DNA of 64,000 bases from an uncultured Nitrososphaeraceae archaeon (GTDB taxonomy: Archaea; Thermoproteota; Nitrososphaeria; Nitrososphaerales; Nitrososphaeraceae), in the NCBI GenBank assembly GCA_963825865.1, contig CAWGVG010000021.1, forward strand, positions 64,001-128,000, written 5' to 3'. Of this stretch, positions 13,662-23,539 are shown piece after piece; the stretch's first letter is position 1, and the number at the start of each line of letters is the position of its first letter. The notes under the pieces were generated by a model. The model did no database searches. It was not told where the DNA came from and saw only the letters and a list, made by a program, of their open reading frames with translations. The position numbers and the translations under genes are program-made.

Positions 13662-16600
13662 TTAACCCATAAATTCCGTCAGAGTTAACTGTTCTTTCTT
13701 TTGTTCCTTAAAGATTAATTTTAGTTCCATTGTCAAAGATTCAACTCTGCTACGTAAATAATCATTGATTTTGAATTGATTACACAGACTTGTTGCAATA
13801 TTAACATATTTTTCAACTGAACCTTTAGTAACTGTTTGCAAAAGTTCATTTCCACATTCAATACACTTGCCCATAAGTGGTATTCGACGATATTTTTCTC
13901 CACACCTACTGCATCGAAAGGCTTGAGAAGAATATGATCGCATGTTACCCATAATGTCGGGTAAAATGTGTGTCGTAAGTACCATTGATACCACTTCATC
14001 AGGATTGACGGCATTGATTAGTTTTGCAGTAGTTATCTGCATTTCCAATTTTTCATCCATAGTATTGAGTCTAGAATATGCACTTCGCTGACTATTGGTT
14101 GTTAGCAGACCTGTAAAATGAGTAAAGCCATAGTTGAAAAATTGGTTTTCATTTCCAATCCTATTTTTAATAATTTCTATCTTGCTGGCAAAGTCTCCAG
14201 CTTTGGACTGGTTCCATGTTGCTTCGTAAAATTCAAGTGGATAAACTGAAGTGACGTCAATATTATGGGCTTGTCTTTGCACTTCATCGGGCAATACAAC
14301 TGGTTGAATCAATAGTGGTGCATCCATGAGTCCGCCGATTTTATTGGGCAAAAAGTCATATGAAAAGTTTAGCAATGCATCCATCAAAAGCATTATCGAG
14401 TCTGCATCGCCATCACAATCCCTACGTTTTGCAGCGTGCCAGATAGGAGACGCCAGACAGACCTGGGAATCTGTAAAGCCTATAATTCTTCCTATAATAC
14501 CCACAGAAGTGTGTGGTGCGAGCCCAACTATCAGATGTCCTATAAGATCTTCTACGGAGGATGTATTATAGAAAGGTTCAAGTCCATATATTTTTACAAG
14601 TTCTTCATCGATAAATTTGGCTACATTGAGTAAATGTTTAGCGGCATCTAAAGGTATCATTACATCTTGCATCAACAGTTCGACTAACTGATCAGGCGAC
14701 GTCAGTTCCCTGCCAATATAATCCCTTCTATAACCCAATTCTTTTAATTTTCGATATCGACCATGGTCCACTTTGGTTTGAAGTGGGTCAGCGGCTCGTT
14801 GGTTGCGTCAAATCTAATAGTCCCATCCTTGAAAGTATACAGCCCATATTTTTGTCTTAATATTCCTTTTTCTAGTGGCTCGCCTGCCTTGTCCTTGCTC
14901 ATAAGAGCCTTAACACCTTTGAGTGGTTCAGTCGCCATGATTCCAAGTTTTCGTTGTGCTTCTTCAAGTACTGTTTTTAGTGGATAGCTGATAGGGGAGT
15001 AAGTCTTACCCTCCTTACCACACCTATAGCACTGGTTATTGACGGCATCATCTGCAATTTCCTCTCTACAAACTATACATAAATTGCGTAAAGAAGTAAG
15101 AGCACCACAATTACGGCAGTGGGATCCAATTGAAGGAAGTTTACAATTATTACAAAATCTATTTGCGATTTCAGCATAAAATGATTCGTCCTTTGCTGCC
15201 TTCAAAATATCACGTGTTGCACCTCCTTTGATACCAATAGGAAACAATACATGAACAGGTGGTTTCATTTTACGTTCAGCAGCCTTTTCAGGACGCCCAA
15301 CTCTGACTGCAATTGATGAAGCAAATTTTGGCTTGACTTCAACTCCTGATATCTTTGAAATAAATTCGAATGCATCTTTTGCCTTAATACCACTTTTGAC
15401 AGATGCTGTTGATAATCCCGTGGTTGATGGATACGTTATTGTTGCTGGTTCAGAACAGATCAATAACTTGGTCAGCGAATACACCTGATCCATGCTGTTA
15501 ATTTCAATAATATTTGCTATTTTTAATTGAATGGATAACACCTAGTCGTTCCAAGATATCTTTTAACTTTGGATTATCGTTAGGCGAATTGTAAAAAAGA
15601 ATGAATGGGGTTATTATCGTTATTGATATCAACATTCTGTTGCTGGTGCTGTTTTCGTTGTTGACCCTGTAATACTTTTCCCTCAATAATAAAACTTCAT
15701 TTATGCTGACAGAATCCCAATAGAATGAGTATTTTGGATGAAGAGGAATGTTAAACTTTCTGCTGATTTCAAATGCTTCTTCAACTGTTGGAAACATTGT
15801 GAAGGGTTCTTTTGATAATTGAATTAGCCTTTCGCTGATTATTTCTCTCACTTAGTAAGAGATAAACAAGGGATGACGATGTAGACAGTTTCGAATGTAA
15901 TTGTAATGCCCAAATTTCTTCCACATAACTAGCAGGTGGTAGTTGAGCATTATTTTCAAGAAAATCGCCATAACTTATTAAAATATCGCCAAGGTAAATT
16001 ATTTTTTCAATCTTAGGTCGGATCTTAGTAGCCTGTTCTATTGTTAACACGTACATAACATTGCCATCATCAAGCCTAACAAGCGGAGGCTCAATAGTAT
16101 CTACAAGTGCAATAGTTGATGCTTTTCCAGGTACATCCATTTTAATTTGTGTACCCACAACAAAGGCATGATTTAGTAATATAGGCACAGCAGGATGAAT
16201 TCCAATAGTTGCAAAACCGGTATTATAACATCGGCCATACCTTAACCGGAAGCCTCCGATTTTCTTCGACATCGAAAGCACTGGCCTGCCAGTAATCACT
16301 TCAGACATTCTGTGGTGTAGCGGCATCATCCTCATTACCTGTTTGAATTGCCCCCTTGAGATCCTTGAGCCAATTCCAGCCCTCCAGTTTTAATGTTTCA
16401 ACAAGTTTGAGCAACTTTCTACTTCTACCGATCAGACCATCATTCATTACTCTCAGAGCACCACCACGAACCCTATTGGTAGAAATTCTCTTCATTCCTC
16501 TATGTCCCACAACTTCTACCGGATCAGTATCTATACCATCAAGCTCTACTGGCAAATTGACTATACATTTAACTACATCTTCATCTAACACTTTAAACTG

Positions 16601-17230
16601 AAAATTGCCAACTTCACGTTCGTAAATTCTGAGTTCTTCGACAAATCTTCCTGTCTCATCATCGTAGGAGTTTGCAATGTATTTACCTAATCCAGCAATT
16701 TTTCTTACATGGTCTGCTATTAGCATCGTAAATGCGGCCTCAGTTCCTCCCGCAGACCGGATAGGGCCAGCAAACGATATTGAAAGGTATTGGCTTCCGT
16801 CATGAGTTATTTTTTAGTTGTACATCAGCAATTCCTTGTAGAGGAGCAACTGTCACACCTTCTGTAACTATAGCTAGACTAACACGTACAGCATTATCCA
16901 ATTTGGTTCGTAAGTCGCCATTGCCATATTCTCCCATGGCAATTTCTTCAGCAATTTTAAGTGCTGCCTTTTCCTTGGTGGTCCGCGAAAGTAGAGCACG
17001 CAATCGATCTGCGATATCAATATTATGCATTTTTGCAACTCTGTCTGCCAAGTCAAACGCAATTTTTGGTTCTACTCTGTCTACAACATCTAATCCTAGT
17101 TTCCGTGCTTTCGTACCGCAACTCAAAATTCTTTTGTACATTTTTCAAAATATTGTGTTGGTAATTTAAATAATACAATGGCATACGCATATTTTTTAAA
17201 CGAGATTTCAGCCTCATCAATCATTGTCAT
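13662..17230 (-). CDS. polC: DNA polymerase D large subunit DP2 (several frameshifts)
   Basis: TEGVTVAPLQG, FAGPIRSAGGT, GGFRLRYGR, RVGRPEKA, HAAKRRDCDGD and C-terminal Zn fingers across six or more ORF pieces. Confidence 0.96.
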
Positions 17231-18092: not shown

Positions 18093-18356
18093 CTATTTTT
18101 TATTAATGTAATTGGTATGAACAAGTCCCTCCGTTCTGTTTTGAATCTGCAAAAAACATATTCCCTTCTCCGTTGTTCTATAAGATCGCATTCCATCTTC
18201 ATATTCTATCAAACCATTTTTCTCTAAAACTGCCAAGTATTCCTTTAATTGAACATAAGATAGAAAGGCTTTATACATTATTTTTGTCTTGGTAGCTCCA
18301 CCATTAGCGGCTTCTAGAATCATTTCAGCTATGTCACTTCTGCTTCTATATCGCAT
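18093..18356 (-). CDS. Small winged-HTH protein (HTH_45/ArsR-like), copy 2
   Basis: MRYRSRSDIAEMILEAANGGATKTKIMYKAFLSY. Confidence 0.9.
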   Translation of the reverse strand: MRYRSRSDIAEMILEAANGGATKTKIMYKAFLSYVQLKEYLAVLEKNGLIEYEDGMRSYRTTEKGICFLQIQNRTEGLVHTNYINKK

Positions 18357-18721
18357 CAGAATCAAAGAGGAAATGAAAGAATAAGTATTTATGCTATCCC
18401 TCTATTTGTACTAAACCCAGTACTAGTTTCTATCAAACATATTACTTTGCAATAGATAATGTATATAATAAGCCTCATTTGTTTGATAACAATTAATTAT
18501 CCTAAGACATATCTGGTTGTCACGTACGATTGACTAATTATGACGAATAGAAGCTAATTATACATAAATTATAATATTCGTATACATAATTGTGATATTT
18601 ATATAATCATATAGGGATTTTATACAGATAGTTAATGATATTCATTTAGGAGTGGACAATTACGATCCCAGATCAGACAATAACTTATATTGAAGTCGCC
18701 TATACAGATTTGTATAGCTTT

Positions 18722-19093
18722 ATGATAAAGCAGGAAACTAATTTTAATTACATTTATAAAAATATTATTGCAAATTCTTTCTTCACTGAAAGACAAATAT
18801 ATATTATTTCTAAAAGGTTGATTGGTAAAAATAGAGTAGAAAATATTAGTTCTGGTGCATATTATAGACAGTTAAAGCAGTGTCAGGACAAAGTTATCAG
18901 TCTTTTGTATAGCATACTTCTACTCAGGTCTATAAGAGCTGTTGATGAACAAGCACTTTCCATAATTGACGGATTAGCTGATCAAATAGCCGTGATGTTA
19001 CATACAGAAAATAGTGATATCAACGCTAATGAAAATGTACAAAGTGTGATATCAGTAATGGAACAGATAATTAAAAGAATGTCACAAGTGTGA
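18722..19093 (+). CDS. Origin-proximal HTH-like hypothetical protein
   Basis: SFFTERQIYII...ISSGAYYRQLKQ resembles an HTH; helical C-terminus. Confidence 0.7.
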   Translation: MIKQETNFNYIYKNIIANSFFTERQIYIISKRLIGKNRVENISSGAYYRQLKQCQDKVISLLYSILLLRSIRAVDEQALSIIDGLADQIAVMLHTENSDINANENVQSVISVMEQIIKRMSQV

Positions 19094-19475
19094 AGTAATG
19101 CTACTCATTAAGAATAAATAAAAGTTCTATTACTAGTGTGATATGACTGGTGATATCTCTGTCTTTATTTGGAAATTTATGATATTTGCTGTGATTTCAT
19201 TTACTGTTGGCGCTGTCAGCATGATAATGTATAATATATTAAAAAAAATGTTTCGAGTATCCAATCTCTGTACTGACAAAGACATTATCGATGCGATTGT
19301 AGCAGAGTATACGTATAGATTAAAGAATTTGGAGAAGACAATTGCCGAATTACGTGTCAAAACAGATACTATGGAAATGCGGATATCACAGCAACCTGCA
19401 TCACAAACTCCTATCATTACTAGCACCTCTGTGACAACTGACCTAGGCAAAGAAGCATCACAGCATCAATCACAG
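18990..19475. repeat. Cluster of TGTGAT/ATCACA motifs (half-sites of TGTGATATCACA)
   Basis: Exact hits at 19045, 19137, 19190, 19385, 19400, 19457, 19469; near matches at 18992, 19014, 19080, 19089, 19150, 19430. Confidence 0.8.
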
Positions 19476-19856
19476 GTAGGATATCCTCCTACATCCTCCG
19501 TAAGTGAGACAGGGGCTATTATTCAGCTGTCGGCGTTACCTGCGACTAAGAGCAATGGAGATGTATATAACAACACTATGGATTATATACTTAAATTGTT
19601 AATTGAAAGACCTAGAACTTCAAGGGAAATACAACACGCCATCAGGAGAACGCGAGAACACACATCGCGTCTTATGAAAAAGCTTCACCAAGCCAACCTT
19701 GTGAGTAGAGATAACAATAGCAAACCCTTCAAATACGCCATTAGTGATGCAGGTCGTATACAGTTGAAGGAACATCAAAAGACAAGTGCTGCTGTTGCTG
19801 ATGGTATGCAGGCTCTTGTTGACGCGCCTGAGTCTCAATTACAGACGACGGTCTAG
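19143..19856 (+). CDS. Membrane-anchored coiled-coil plus C-terminal winged-HTH protein
   Basis: N-terminal hydrophobic helix, RLKNLEKTIAELRVK coiled coil, S/Q/T linker, TSREIQHAIRRTREHTSRLMKKL...YAISDAG wHTH. Confidence 0.82.
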   Translation: MTGDISVFIWKFMIFAVISFTVGAVSMIMYNILKKMFRVSNLCTDKDIIDAIVAEYTYRLKNLEKTIAELRVKTDTMEMRISQQPASQTPIITSTSVTTDLGKEASQHQSQVGYPPTSSVSETGAIIQLSALPATKSNGDVYNNTMDYILKLLIERPRTSREIQHAIRRTREHTSRLMKKLHQANLVSRDNNSKPFKYAISDAGRIQLKEHQKTSAAVADGMQALVDAPESQLQTTV

Positions 19857-20257
19857 ACTATTTTATATATCCATTCTTTTCCTTTTTTGTTTCTGTCTAC
19901 CTTGCCTCTTTCACAATATCTAGACAAATAAGTTGAAATTATACTTAATAATATAGGTTCGTTATACTCGTCCTCGTATATCTCCTGGATATCTGATGAA
20001 GTAAAAGTGGTATATGGAAATTTATTTTCAACAATACCCCATATCTTAGAGCCAACTGAGGCCAAATTCTTGTTCAGTTGACTTTTCATATTATTGTTGT
20101 CAGTATTATTATTTTGTCCTTTTATGTCAAGGACTTCAATTAATTCAAAGACCTTCATTATCTTCTCTTTTGACATATTACCTTCTAAAGAAAGGTTATA
20201 CTTGCCTCCATCGGCATCCTCAAGTTCTATCTTTATTTTCTTTTTACCCAAGGTCAA
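19853..20257 (-). CDS. Small protein with C-terminal winged-HTH, adjacent to oriC
   Basis: FTSSDIQEIY...LSIISTYLSRY...VDRNKKGKEWIY wHTH pattern. Confidence 0.8.
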   Translation of the reverse strand: MTLGKKKIKIELEDADGGKYNLSLEGNMSKEKIMKVFELIEVLDIKGQNNNTDNNNMKSQLNKNLASVGSKIWGIVENKFPYTTFTSSDIQEIYEDEYNEPILLSIISTYLSRYCERGKVDRNKKGKEWIYKIV

Positions 20258-20431
20258 TCTAGAGCATCTTTTACTTGTTAATCATATTAGCACCTTAACA
20301 CTTAACACAGCTACTCATAATTTTGATAACAAAGAGATTAGTTTTTGTTAACTTTGTATGAGAGAAGATTATAATAGTGTTAACGACTTCAGCTGTTAAT
20401 TATCCTAATCATTTTATTAATGTTTTTTCGA

Positions 20432-20453
20432 TTCCAGTAGAAATTAAGGGGTC
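20432..20453 (+). promoter_or_regulatory. ORB box 1
   Basis: TTCCAGTAGAAATTAAGGGGTC matches the TCCA-x-GGAAA...G-string ORB consensus. Confidence 0.88.
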
Positions 20454-20493
20454 TGATTCAATGATATTAACAGTGTTAACGACTACCTTAACA

Positions 20494-20515
20494 GTCCAGT
20501 GGAAATAAGGGGGTC
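20494..20515 (+). promoter_or_regulatory. ORB box 2
   Basis: GTCCAGTGGAAATAAGGGGGTC. Confidence 0.92.
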
Positions 20516-20587
20516 ATATTTTACCTGCTTTCTCTACTATCAATAATTCTGTTAATATATTGTTAATACCCGATACTTTTTTAGAAT

Positions 20588-20609
20588 CCACACCCCACCA
20601 TTTCCTGTG
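20588..20609 (-). promoter_or_regulatory. ORB box 3 (inverted, G-string facing ORB2)
   Basis: Reverse complement CACAGGAAATGGTGGGGTGTGG. Confidence 0.75.
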
Positions 20610-20743
20610 TGCATCATCTACTCATAATCTAAAAAATTATAATTAAATATTTTATATAATAGTTAATATTACTTGATTTAGTGGTTTATAAATAAAATGT
20701 TAACATGTTGTTAACATACGGTAAGAAGTCTTCTTATATGTGG

Positions 20744-20765
20744 AAAGGAAAAACAGGGGTGTGGG
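20744..20765 (+). promoter_or_regulatory. ORB-like box 4 in the cdc6 leader
   Basis: AAAGGAAAAACAGGGGTGTGGG, shares GGGGTGTGG with ORB3. Confidence 0.65.
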
Positions 20766-20793
20766 CAAGATCAGACTTGCGTAGAAATGGTGA

Positions 20794-22021
20794 ATGAATT
20801 TGAGCGATGATTTGCTTGACAATATTTTTGAAAGAGTCGCTACAGGAAAAATACTGATCAAGAACCGCCGGACCTTGGCAATAGATTATGTACCTGAAAA
20901 ACTTTCATTTAGGGATGAGGAAACCAAAACAATTGCACAGGCATTATCAGTGGTTTTAAAAAGAGCAAGACCATCTAATCTCCTGTTATTCGGTAAACCT
21001 GGCACCGGAAAGACTGCAGTAGTGAAAAACGTAATTGAACGCCTATACAAAAAAGCCAAGGAACTTGGAATAGAAATTATAGTACCATTTGTAAATACAA
21101 AAACTGCAAACACTGCATACAAAGTTCTCTATGAAATTGCCGAGGATATGGGTATTAACAAAGGTGAAAAGAAATTACACGTACATTTTACTGGACTGTC
21201 AATGGGCGAGGCAACAGATAGAATTCTTGATTTCATTCAAAAGAAAAAATTTTACGTCATTCTGGTATTTGATGAAATTGATTCACTCGTTGACAAAAAC
21301 GGTGATGATATATTATATAATTTTACAAGGGCAAATGAGCGAATTTCTGAAACAGGGTTTATCAGTCTAATTGGAATATCTAACAGCCTTACATTCAAAG
21401 ATAAACTTGACCCTCGCGTTCGAAGCAGCCTGAGTGAAGAAGAGATGGTATTCAATCCATATACAATAGAGCAATTACGAAAAATTCTATCAGATAGGGC
21501 TAAACTCGCATTTAACGACGATGCAATATCGGGCGGCAGCAATCAATTTGTGTGCGGCAATGGCTGGTAAGGAAAATGGTGATGCAAGAAAAGCAATTGA
21601 TTTATTAAGAGTTGCTGCTGAAATTGCTGAAAGAGAAAGAGTGTCTAAAGTTGAAGAAAAGCATATCCGGTTAGCACAAGAAAAAATTGAAAAAGATACT
21701 AATTATGAAGTTATAAAAAATTCTACTACTCATACTAAAATAGTAATATTGGCGATAATGAAATCAAAAAATGGAAATACTGGTGAGGTATACGAAATTT
21801 ATTCGTCATTTTGCAAGCATAGTGAGCAAGAACCACTTACACAACGTCGTATAACACAAATAATAAGTGAGCTCGACCAACTTGGTCTGATAACAAGTAA
21901 TGTAGTAAGCCAGGGGAGATATGGTCGGTCACAAAGAATCAAAATTACCGTCCCGACCTTGACTATCAAAGAAGCACTAAAAGATGATCTAATCCTTTCT
22001 ACATTATTGTTAAAGGATTGA
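20794..22021 (+). CDS. cdc6: Orc1/Cdc6 replication initiator (frameshift near 21530)
   Basis: GKPGTGKT, DEID, LDPRVRSSL, GDARKAIDLL, C-terminal wHTH with GRYGR. Confidence 0.96.
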
Positions 22022-23539
22022 AGTCCATTTGAAAGGGCTGAAAGAGTAGCTAGATTAATTAGAATTGCAATTCCAGGAGTTGGCATAATGCCCATAGTCT
22101 GTTGATATTTGGTTTGCGCTTGCCATGCACCTGAATTAACGATTAAAGTTCCTCGATAATTTTGAACATCTATAATATGGATGTGTCCTGAATGTAATAT
22201 ATCTGGGACCTCAGTAATTACCATCATATCCTCCTGTTCTGGTGCTATAGGGTACGCTTCCCATATATTGGAGATAGATGTCTAGCTTTGAGTAACACCT
22301 TCATTGCCTCTGCTGGCTTTGAGTATGTTAGACCAGGAGTTGTAGCAATAATGTCATCTAAGCTCTGTCCGTGATACATCAATACTTTTACACCATTTAA
22401 TTCTAACAAACTAGGATTTCCAAGCATTGTAAAATTCTCAAAAGTATATAATTTATCAGAATCCTTTCTTGGCAGTGATGGTTGTGGGAAGCTCTTCTAC
22501 CCTGATCATGGTTACCAGGAATTATAAAAACCTTGATATGGTTTGGAATTTTAGCAAGCAAATCTATGGCATGTGTCATTTGCTTGATTGTATCCATTTC
22601 AAGTAATTCTCTATCCTGATTGGGAAATATACCGATACCATCAATTAAATCCCCTCCAATACACACAAACTTGATCTTGCGTACAATTTCATCGTCGGTT
22701 GACGAAAGCCAGTTTAAAAATCTAATAAATTCTGCTTCCATGAAATATTTACTACCAATATGAAGATCCGAAATTAAAACTACATAGGATTCCGATTTTG
22801 ATCTGATTAGGAAGATGATCCGGAATGTCTGGAGAAGTCAGATTCTTTATAACAAACCCTTGGATTTCTTTCTTAATATATTCGACCTCTAACATCACCA
22901 TTTGGTCCAGAGTAAGCATTGAAGCCTGCTTCTTTAATTCATCAGTAACTGTAAGGGCGCTCATAGTTCCGCTGTAGTCATCAATTACTATCTCCAACCC
23001 TTTCTTCCTTGAATGCCTGGACATTAGCAAACCGGCTATGATAGAAGAGGAATTTATACTCAAATCCCTATGAGTGTCGTACTTCTTCTTACCTTTGCAT
23101 TATTTGCTTTCTGTTTTACAGATGCAATTTTTGTAATTCGCTTGCTATCCGGGCGTAATGCTAAGATGCGAAGTGATTTTTCAAACCGACTGCGGAAAAG
23201 TGCAGTATAACCTTCAACTCCCTCTCCAGAGTTAATGCTGAAAGTCGGATCTAAAATTACTTTATGGGAATTCTGCTCGGGAAAAGAATTAACAGCAAGA
23301 CCAATACTATTAACATCATTGGCAGTAATTTTGCTTTCTGGATTGATAAGGTTCTTGATATCCTCAACTACAATAAGAGAACTTTCTTTTTGTTTGATCT
23401 TCATTTTAACAATGTCTTGGATGATCTTTAAAGCATTGGTATCAAGACCTTTGAGCATCGCAAAAGCATCAGGATGTACTTGATATCCATTACTAGTAGC
23501 ATAGGATAGTGCATTAAAAATTTCTCTTTGCAAAGTCAA
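21999..23539 (-). CDS. polB: DNA polymerase D small subunit DP1 (several frameshifts)
   Basis: GDLIDGIGIFPNQ, PGNHD, YHGQSLDD, RHLSP, LHSGHIH, NSGAWQAQT. Confidence 0.94.

Follow-up and report, generated by a model that had tools for sequence, protein, structure and literature searches.

We analysed a 64-kb window, that is, positions 64,001 to 128,000 of contig CAWGVG010000021.1 (contig C21 below) in assembly GCA_963825865.1 of an uncultured Nitrososphaeraceae archaeon, and studied three small genes in it, here called P1, P2, and P3, which lie in the order P1-P2-P3-oriC-orc1/cdc6 beside the replication initiator gene of this soil ammonia-oxidizing archaeon. An earlier note on the same DNA had reported three open reading frames (ORFs) for DNA-binding proteins and two repeat arrays abutting the origin, and had proposed that they tether the origin to the membrane. 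That observation is confirmed here and extended to the scale of the phylum, and the interpretation is in part supported, with a mechanism that we infer from the arrangement. What we observe are the genes, the transmembrane (TM) and winged helix-turn-helix (wHTH) domains, the arrays, the conservation and positions of all of these, and a constraint on the sites at the level of the DNA. All three reported ORFs are present, but the end given for P3 was wrong, and the real gene encodes 171 aa and extends to 19741. The features of the locus are as follows.

18722..19093, plus strand: P1, ORF, 123 aa from the ATG at 18722
19143..19856, plus strand: P2, ORF, 237 aa
19741..20257, minus strand: P3, corrected gene, 171 aa, convergent with P2
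19045..19474, no strand: nine TGTGA[T/C] half-sites in an array that runs from the 3' end of P1 over the promoter and start of P2 into the codons of its linker
20276..20716, no strand: TGTTAA/TTAACA array of 15 hexamers in the intergenic origin
20433..20452, plus strand: origin recognition box (ORB) 1, 2/20 mismatches to the core
20495..20514, plus strand: ORB 2, 1/20 mismatches to the core
20588..20606, minus strand: degenerate inverted ORB-like element, forming an inverted repeat with 20746-20764 (79% complementary)
20618..20697, no strand: AT-rich stretch (85-90% A+T), candidate unwinding element
20741..20760, plus strand: degenerate ORB-like element GGAAAGGAAAAACAGGGGT, 6/20 mismatches, before cdc6
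20794..22021, plus strand: orc1/cdc6 initiator gene, with Pfam AAA, Cdc6_lid, and Cdc6_C

The 536-bp intergenic gap between P3 and cdc6, which begins at 20794, has the make-up of an ORB-type origin: it contains ORBs and an AT-rich stretch that lies between inverted ORB-like elements, and the initiator gene adjoins it. The reference for scoring ORBs was the core common to 19 of the 20 loci of the window's family (f1), and an element of the GGAAAGGAAAAACAGGGGT type also precedes cdc6 in most loci of that family. A single origin has been mapped in N. maritimus, a result credited to Pelve et al. 2013 in a passage of a review (PMC4010727).

Protein architecture and conservation of the locus

P2 joins a membrane segment to a DNA-binding domain, as the earlier note had read it. 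It has an N-terminal TM helix (residues ~7-25), a helical segment (~45-85), a low-complexity S/Q/T linker, and a C-terminal wHTH (~145-215). In 29 orthologues, we located the best 19-residue hydrophobic stretch and counted Lys and Arg residues before it and in the 12 residues after it. This stretch begins within the first 20 residues in 28/29 orthologues, is preceded by no Lys or Arg in 27/29 and never by more than one, and is followed by two to five in 28/29. The charge pattern is that of a signal anchor, predicting an N-out/C-in orientation. At most 19 residues lie outside the membrane in the 28 orthologues with a TM stretch, and with an outside tail of 20 residues or less P2 is without an evident sensing part. 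The wHTH matches the Pfam families HVO_A0261_N in 26/29, TrmB in 23/29, and HTH_Crp_2 in 7/29 orthologues. Residues R171, E172, H173, R176, R189, P195, and Y198 are invariant among the 29, the wing has the form K-P-F-x-Y, and the recognition helix R-E-H-T-S-R is invariant across the phylum sample described below. The protein sequence of the linker is poorly conserved and varies among orthologues.

P3 begins with ~45 conserved residues, followed by a spacer and then a BlaI/CopY-like wHTH (~80-134), in agreement with the small convergent wHTH gene reported earlier. Penicillinase_R matches 15/27 orthologues at E<=0.1 (best 1.1e-7), the window's own copy being unmatched; a profile search of the PDB gave 2k4b (E 0.023), and Atlas shows neighbor clusters from Bathyarchaeota, with an 18% share of Penicillinase_R. 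The wHTH is C-terminal and stands behind a small N-terminal domain of no assigned family, the reverse of the order in BlaI/MecI/CopY. In the window's family, P3 ends in T-V-Y-D-L-[H/R]-x (19741-19765; here TVYDLHH) after a variable Gln-rich spacer, a peptide that looks like a short docking motif for a partner.

P1 had been called HTH-like from a reading by eye, to which a weak lead in Atlas to Sigma70_r4 (0.82) can be added. Pfam, NCBIfam, and PDB profile searches do not support the label: they returned no family for P1, nor did Pfam for 10 distant relatives. A search of 1.84 billion proteins gave only 241 cluster representatives for P1 at E<=0.001, all of them short stand-alone proteins, and the orthologue alignment has an invariant G-A-Y-x-R...Q...K pattern. 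An hhalign comparison of P1 with P2 gave a probability of 0.9%. The names under which databases hold the module proteins are only "hypothetical" or "predicted transcriptional regulator"/"MarR family".

Single-protein searches of 41 related genomes matched P2 in 37, P3 in 36, cdc6 in 39, and P1 in 28, and 35 stretches were fetched from 32 genomes of the order. The order P1-P2-(P3 convergent)-intergenic region-cdc6 runs throughout the 32 order loci by tblastn. P2 is next to cdc6 in 31 of them by tblastn and in the last one by the single-protein genome search; P3 is at the origin locus in 20 and intact elsewhere in the genome in the other 12. In one relative (L013, G017:C75, 1930-2310), the P3 gene beside oriC has three stop codons and an intact copy is found on another contig, which looks like a snapshot of P3 relocating from the origin. 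In the window's own assembly, P1, P2, and P3 are each single copy.

Mapping P2 across the phylum, we searched a sample of 151 genomes with a P2 profile and counted as adjacent, by comparison by hand, any match within 5 kb of the best cdc6. The profile matched 91 genomes. P2 lies within 5 kb of cdc6 on the same contig in 19/19 genomes of the Nitrosopumilaceae-type family f13. Of the other 71 genomes that the profile matched, 33 also have P2 this close to cdc6, and these 33 belong to 11 families (f18, f22, f28, f30, f31, f33, f37, f40, f44, f46, and f49). The matches in f24, f26, f32, f41, and f43 are not adjacent to cdc6 and are often shorter, and the P2 profile found no match in 13/13 genomes of f27 (~2 Mb) or in some other families of the sample. 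Profile hidden Markov models (HMMs) identified P3 in 16, and P1 likewise in 16, of 18 loci taken from the 33 adjacent ones, and over all 51 oriented loci they detected P1 beside P2 in 49; the TM helix is retained in 13 of the 18 distant P2 orthologues. The layout is also found in "Ca. Nitrosotenuis chungbukensis" MY2 and in metagenome-assembled genomes of Nitrosopumilus, Nitrosotalea, and Nitrosopelagicus. Linkage to cdc6, chosen beforehand as a point on which the proposal could fail, is conserved across the order and 11 further families, and the best explanation for this distribution would be that the three-gene module is ancient and belongs to the chromosomal origin region.

Two motif arrays at P2 and in the origin

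The two arrays that had been noticed by eye stand out in counts. TGTGAT/ATCACA occurs 48 times in the window, seven of them in the densest 500 bp (19045-19474), and TGTTAA/TTAACA occurs 84 times, 15 of them in the densest 500 bp (20276-20716), a zone separate from that of the first motif. None of 150 first-order Markov simulations reached the observed maximum for either motif, the highest count being six for both. No window of the 4.98-Mb assembly is denser in TGTTAA than the oriC array, and for TGTGAT the P2 array ranks second overall and first among windows not derived from a coding tandem repeat. The top TGTGAT window (C27:125210-125431) consists of nine tandem 27-bp units inside a long ORF and is unrelated to the origin module. 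The next-densest nontandem TGTGAT/ATCACA clusters (C33:83166-83575 and C62:123651-123993) are paralogous intergenic stretches with five to six sites each, which could be secondary P2 targets.

Counted as TGTGA[T/C], the half-sites of the P2 array are at 19045, 19081(-), 19137, 19190, 19385(-), 19400(-), 19430, 19457(-), and 19469(-). A TATA-like AATAAATAAAAG stands ~20-33 bp before the P2 ATG, and one TGTGA site overlaps the start. When the 32 order loci are aligned on the P2 start, the interval -200..+100 has 72 TGTGAT and 32 ATCACA and the interval +200..+400 has 49 ATCACA and 8 TGTGAT, with other 100-bp bins mostly at 0-6 sites and 13 at -900..-800. The density of TGTGA[TC] between -350 and +450 is 8.0/kb versus 1.1/kb elsewhere in these loci, and near the P2 start of the 18 distant loci it is 6.0/kb versus 1.2/kb elsewhere; at least three sites are present in 31/32 order loci and 10/18 distant loci. 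In the distant loci, P2 has its sites on the upstream side, 27 of them at -100..0 and 14 at -200..-100, often as full palindromes TGTGAYRTCACA or 7-bp-offset tandems, and there is no downstream cluster. Perfect 12-mers of TGTGAYRTCACA are absent from this assembly and from two complete genomes of the window's family, and two other complete genomes have one copy each, elsewhere in the genome. The array in the window's order is built from half-sites.

Within the P2 coding sequence, 94 sites are found, compared with 27.0 +/- 4.6 (maximum 42) in 200 synonymous-codon shuffles. Since the sites exceed the shuffles, all three frames are used (16/14/41 for ATCACA), and the protein sequence of the linker is not conserved, the constraint acts on the DNA. 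The orientation bias of the sites has its origin in coding: TGTGAT suits the TM segment, where 22/23 copies are in the frame that reads Val-Ile/Met (another frame gives a TGA stop), and ATCACA, which encodes Ser, Gln, His, and Thr, suits the linker.

Five of the sites in the window's origin array are TGTTAAC. The array also contains a 22-nt sequence repeated directly at 20367 and 20463, and a TATA-like TTTATAAATAAAA is followed at once by two TGTTAACA palindromes, which are 11 bp apart (20698 and 20709). TTGTTAA(C) is found in 20/20 loci of the window's family, the window included, at ~5 per locus, and cdc6 in this family is preceded by a conserved unit that combines a TATA-like element with two TGTTAAC(A), set 11 bp apart, and with an ORB-like GGAAAGGAAA-ACAGGGGTGTG. 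The remaining 13 order loci have TTGTGAA as their second motif (found in 10/13), and TGTGAA is also found in the distant loci, with 5-8 copies in 8/18. Taken together as TGT[GT]AA, the sites have a density of 14.8/kb in the intergenic region versus 1.4/kb outside it, with at least three in 31/32 order loci and 15/18 distant loci, so that both motif classes of the earlier note recur in orthologous loci. Outside the window's family, 22/40 and 39/89 of the sites fall in the P3-proximal fifth of the intergenic region; within it, the TGTTAA sites extend across the entire origin. In the origin, TGTGA is followed by A at 80% of sites; the sites upstream of P2 have T at this position in 58%, C in 28%, and A in 4%, and because of this difference, we treat the origin and P2 sites as two site classes.

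Candidate motif readers, proposed origin anchoring, and alternative explanations

The top PDB matches of the P2 profile are Vfr/CRP (E 0.025, over ~30 residues), in which P2 t-s-r-e-I-q-..-s-R-E-H-t-s-R-L-m-K aligns to T-R-Q-E-I-G-..-S-R-E-M-V-G-R-V-L-K. In Escherichia coli CRP, R180-E-T-V-G-R185 reads T-G-T-G-A, with Arg180 contacting G2 and Glu181 and Arg185 contacting the G4:C4 pair, as described in a passage of PMC11253593, and an excerpt of PMC2677863 presents the R-E-x-x-x-R triad as the proposed, and in part demonstrated, determinant of specificity among CRP/FNR proteins. Because the spacing of the P2 triad matches that of CRP and TGTGA[T/C] sits at the P2 gene throughout, we predict that the P2 wHTH reads TGTGA[T/C], and this is the strongest pairing argument available. 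The likeness to CRP/FNR, as far as those excerpts describe the family, extends to the triad at the same helix positions and the TGTGA half-site. It ends at the N terminus, which in CRP/FNR has a cyclic nucleotide-binding domain and in P2 is a TM helix with no such Pfam match, and at the half-site spacing, which is N6 for CRP and N2 (TGTGAYRTCACA) or dispersed for P2 sites. We regard TGTGATATCACA as a candidate target of a P2 wHTH dimer and TGTTAACA as a candidate target of P3.

The factor on TGT(T/G)AA is probably P3 or P1. The recognition helix of P3 reads LS-[IVLM]-x-STYLxR-[YF] in loci with strong TGTTAA arrays and LS-T(A)-x-STYLxR-[LMI] in loci with TGTGAA arrays, and the change from a polar to a hydrophobic residue opposite the change from G to T would be chemically sensible. 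The P2 helix is invariant across the same switch. P3 is favored as the binder only because it has a BlaI-like fold, is placed divergently, and has origin sites concentrated on its side. The view of the earlier note, with a membrane protein on an array by oriC and a second protein on the in-origin array, appears in part supported by the motif switch and the P2 helix: two proteins on two arrays fit, since the CRP-like helix of P2 goes with TGTGA and the origin motif shifts with P3 or P1, not with P2. Judged by sequence, each of the three outcomes that would have refuted the earlier note came out on the side of a functional module.

We lean, if only slightly, toward a module in which the membrane protein P2 binds its own array and holds origin DNA while a second factor acts on the origin and promoters. 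P2 would be a single-pass membrane protein with its N terminus outside and its helical segment and wHTH in the cytoplasm, would occupy ~9 TGTGA[T/C] half-sites on its own promoter and the 5' half of its coding sequence, and would be repressed or tuned by this occupancy. As long as P2 stays in the membrane, the occupied array would hold origin-proximal DNA at the cell membrane. The second factor on TGT(T/G)AA(C) would most likely be P3, divergent from cdc6, or alternatively P1, and would regulate transcription from the promoters of P3 and cdc6, and perhaps also the access of Orc1/Cdc6 to the origin. Repression, tethering, and roles in origin positioning, segregation, and initiation timing are what we infer from this arrangement, and the role in segregation is wholly conjectural.

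Several observations weigh against this proposal. Autoregulation explains much of the TGTGA array, because the sites sit on P2's own promoter, and 8/18 distant loci have fewer than three TGTGA[TC] sites near P2. The P2 array in this genome is one cluster, 0.8-1.5 kb from the ORBs, rather than a series of centromere sites distributed across the origin region. The link to CRP is a weak alignment of a short helix, and P2 is not a member of CRP/FNR. Three short distant P2 proteins (f22 and f30) are without a TM helix, and two further distant ones have a doubtful ORF start. The coiled coil read in the earlier note is a candidate only, its heptad score in a crude test exceeding that of the protein's own shuffles in 15/29 orthologues. 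P1 also differs between the motif groups (YYRQ..C versus F[NL]RT..A), and the TGTGAA and TGTTAA groups are probably one clade each and represent one evolutionary event; because both proteins change in what was likely a single event, P3 and P1 cannot be told apart as the binder. The origin array is kept in the 12/32 loci lacking a local P3, and 13 relocated P3 genes have no upstream array (a single TGTTAA within -110..-30 in 5/13 is too weak to use). Moreover, TGTTAACA arrays occur at two other places in the assembly, C30:4081-4332 (L118) and C26:6414-6541 (L119), so that the TGTTAACA binder is not origin specific. Both are copies of one conserved intergenic element of ~330 bp, in which 6-7 perfect TGTTAACA follow one another at intervals of mostly 12-44 bp and which adjoins response-regulator receiver genes and a Usp gene. 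A smaller group is found at C52:1972-2017. These elements may be bound by the origin-array factor as well or may represent another replicon-like element. Finally, no partner ATPase is in sight: AAA_31, the only ParA-type family searched, matches on contigs C46, C36, and C14 and not on C21, in line with the earlier statement that the window has no ParA/SegA ATPase.

It is possible, if rather doubtful, that P2 and P3 are ordinary autoregulated transcription factors that happen to lie beside cdc6, with P2 repressing its own promoter and perhaps a few other genes while held in the membrane, or else released by proteolysis, P3 a BlaI-type autorepressor, and the nearness of oriC meaningless. The TGTGA sites overlap the region from the P2 TATA element to the start and in distant lineages are found only upstream, most lineages have their TGTGAA sites crowded close to the P3 start, and the names given to the proteins in databases and the lack of an AAA_31 partition ATPase nearby point the same way. 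Since this evidence does not separate binding at the own promoter from anchoring of the origin, the explanation stays strong. However, the gene order beside oriC/cdc6 is kept across more than 25 families, which is unusual for unlinked regulators, and 5-10 sites over ~600 bp, extending into the coding sequence in all frames, exceed what an operator needs. The persistence of the origin array after P3 has moved away, and its absence at the relocated gene, also argue against a role in autoregulation alone, and the short outside tail of P2 leaves no sensor domain. In addition, a DNA-bound integral membrane protein would tether its site whatever its "purpose."

It is improbable that the pairing of proteins and motifs is reversed or different, with P1 or P3 on TGTGA[T/C] and P2 elsewhere, or with Orc1/Cdc6 reading TGT(T/G)AA. 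Both motifs share a TGT core, the TGTGA predicted for P2 is part of the ancestral origin motif TGTGAA, the motif switch is accompanied by changes in P1 as well as in P3, and every pairing is built on the logic of the sequences. Against such a rearrangement stand the two site classes distinguished by the base after TGTGA, the P2 helix that stays the same while the origin motif changes, and the TGTTAACA arrays away from any ORB-bearing cdc6 locus. The reading of TGTGAT...ATCACA as an RNA feature, through long-range pairing in the P2 mRNA or antisense control via the P2/P3 overlap, was rejected as extremely improbable: in the order loci, most sites at -200..+100 read TGTGAT and most at +200..+400 its complement ATCACA, and 19186-19198 is complementary to 19382-19394 over 13 nt, but the fold of 19120-19490 has a z of +0.48 with 65/100 shuffles folding as well, Rfam gave no match, the distant lineages have the upstream cluster with no downstream one, and coding accounts for the orientation bias.

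If the origin-anchoring proposal is set beside known systems, the module is assigned to no existing family, and the kind of system, an origin-membrane tether, is already known. RacA/ram-DivIVA and PopZ-ParB tie origin-proximal sites to the cell envelope through a site-specific DNA-binding protein. They anchor through a separate polar scaffold, with many sites or with parS and a ParA ATPase, in contrast to the single integral membrane protein and single site cluster found here. DNA-binding domains fused to a membrane anchor are familiar from ToxR/CadC-type regulators and archaeal ArnR, where they come with sensor or HAMP modules; P2, with its few residues outside the membrane, lacks the sensor domain of ToxR/CadC. 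BlaI/MecI/CopY repressors act at divergent promoters with TGT-core repeats, and the P3 region is similar; its wHTH may be so too, with Penicillinase_R matching some orthologues and not the window's own copy. They differ from P3 in having an N-terminal wHTH and a C-terminal dimerization domain; no sensor protease of the BlaR1/MecR1 type was seen among the ORFs around the locus, and the target region of P3 is a replication origin.

Like ParABS and SegAB, the window has a cluster of specific sites near the origin (nine TGTGA[TC], ~1 kb from the ORBs). SegB of Sulfolobus, which works with the ParA-like SegA and is an archaeal segregation candidate in the passages of PMC7617429 that treat it, resembles P2, judged by sequence, as an archaeal DNA-binding protein proposed for chromosome organization or segregation. 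As described there, SegB is not membrane anchored and has SegA as its partner, whereas P2 has a TM anchor and no AAA_31 gene on its contig. By function, the nearest analogue of P2 may be RicO of Staphylococcus aureus, which in the portion of the preprint at hand (bioRxiv 10.64898/2026.03.06.710092) combines a DNA-binding domain, a membrane-binding element, and an origin-proximal motif. RicO shares with P2, as predicted from its protein sequence, the union of both elements in one protein. It is a bacterial protein whose DNA-binding domain is N-terminal and whose amphipathic helix is C-terminal, and no sequence relation to P2 was seen; the binding and phenotype of RicO are experimental, and P2 is known here from sequence.

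Full-text literature searches found no description of the module, with the limit that supplements of origin-mapping studies could hold overlapping repeat lists, and none of the papers listed by a search for TGTTAACA together with thaumarchaeal names held the motif. The accessible text of a 2008 gene-context study of cdc6 neighbors (PMC2643942) reports links to PolD, RFC, and MCM and has neither "membrane" nor "transcriptional regulator" in it. In the relevant part of a 2024 cell cycle review (PMC7617429), only SegAB is named, for Sulfolobus, and how SegAB drives DNA segregation is said not to be understood.

Archaeal origin positioning, segregation, and cell cycle control of orc1/cdc6 are largely unknown. 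We put forward as a tentative and rather unlikely generalization that much of Thermoproteota, including the ammonia oxidizers and not the Sulfolobus-type models, has its own system of origin anchoring and initiation control, in which P2 would clamp a centromere-like TGTGA array next to oriC to the cell membrane, and its partners P3 and P1 would bind the second motif within the origin and gate orc1/cdc6 expression and origin firing. If this is true, the membrane-attached origin of the replicon model would be physically realized, and origin position, segregation, and initiation timing would be coupled without a ParA-type motor. The locus offers testable parts, with three single-copy genes by oriC, a predicted P2-TGTGA[T/C] pair, and the second site class TGT(T/G)AA, in hosts that are globally important nitrifiers and have several relatives of the same layout in culture.

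Assembly errors, transcription, and neighboring genes

As read in the assembly, P3 spans 19853-20257 (minus strand; 134 aa) and is shortened by a 1-base insertion at 19857; the sequence resumes in another frame and reaches a stop at 19741, and a 99%-identical database protein has 171 residues. Likewise, cdc6 is read as two overlapping ORFs (20794-21570 and 21521-22021), with a 1-base insertion at 21535. We checked these bases in contigs from four public Illumina runs of soil, two of DNA and two of RNA. The base at 19857 is missing from the contigs of all four runs, and the two DNA runs are also without one base at 21535 (inside cdc6), 20768, 20775, and 22041; the frameshifts in P3 and cdc6 are thus single-base insertions of the assembly. 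Position 20577 is a further place in the window where public-run contigs are without a single base. Both PolD subunit genes flanking the locus are broken into several ORFs (14744-17141 and 22245-23539), probably from the same cause. The assembly seems to carry many 1-base insertions, and gene calls elsewhere in it need care.

With the frameshift removed, the 3' ends of P2 and P3 overlap by ~115 nt (19741-19856). In relatives of the window's family, the overlap is 53-140 nt in seven and 4-24 nt in six others, and one RNA contig crosses it. P1 has an alternative TTG start at 18710 (18710-19093 in the ORF list), which would give 127 aa. In two studies, metatranscriptome contigs extend over P2, P3, and cdc6, a weak hint at their expression from libraries that may hold DNA. 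These contigs start at 19184 and 19200 and do not include P1, which faintly hints at a promoter of P2's own; the intergenic region is not covered by them either, and gaps of this kind in contigs carry no weight as evidence.

Two minor features lie on the P1 side of the locus. An inverted repeat TTCCTGTGAT...ATCACAGG(A/G)AT is found ~330-380 bp upstream of P1 in five relatives (L020, L024, L028, L043, and L044), with no counterpart in the window, and may belong to a neighboring gene or a small RNA. In the window, a small wHTH gene (18093-18365, minus strand; Pfam HTH_45, E 5.8e-19) is divergent upstream of P1, and in one relative (L021), its homologue is on the far side of cdc6.

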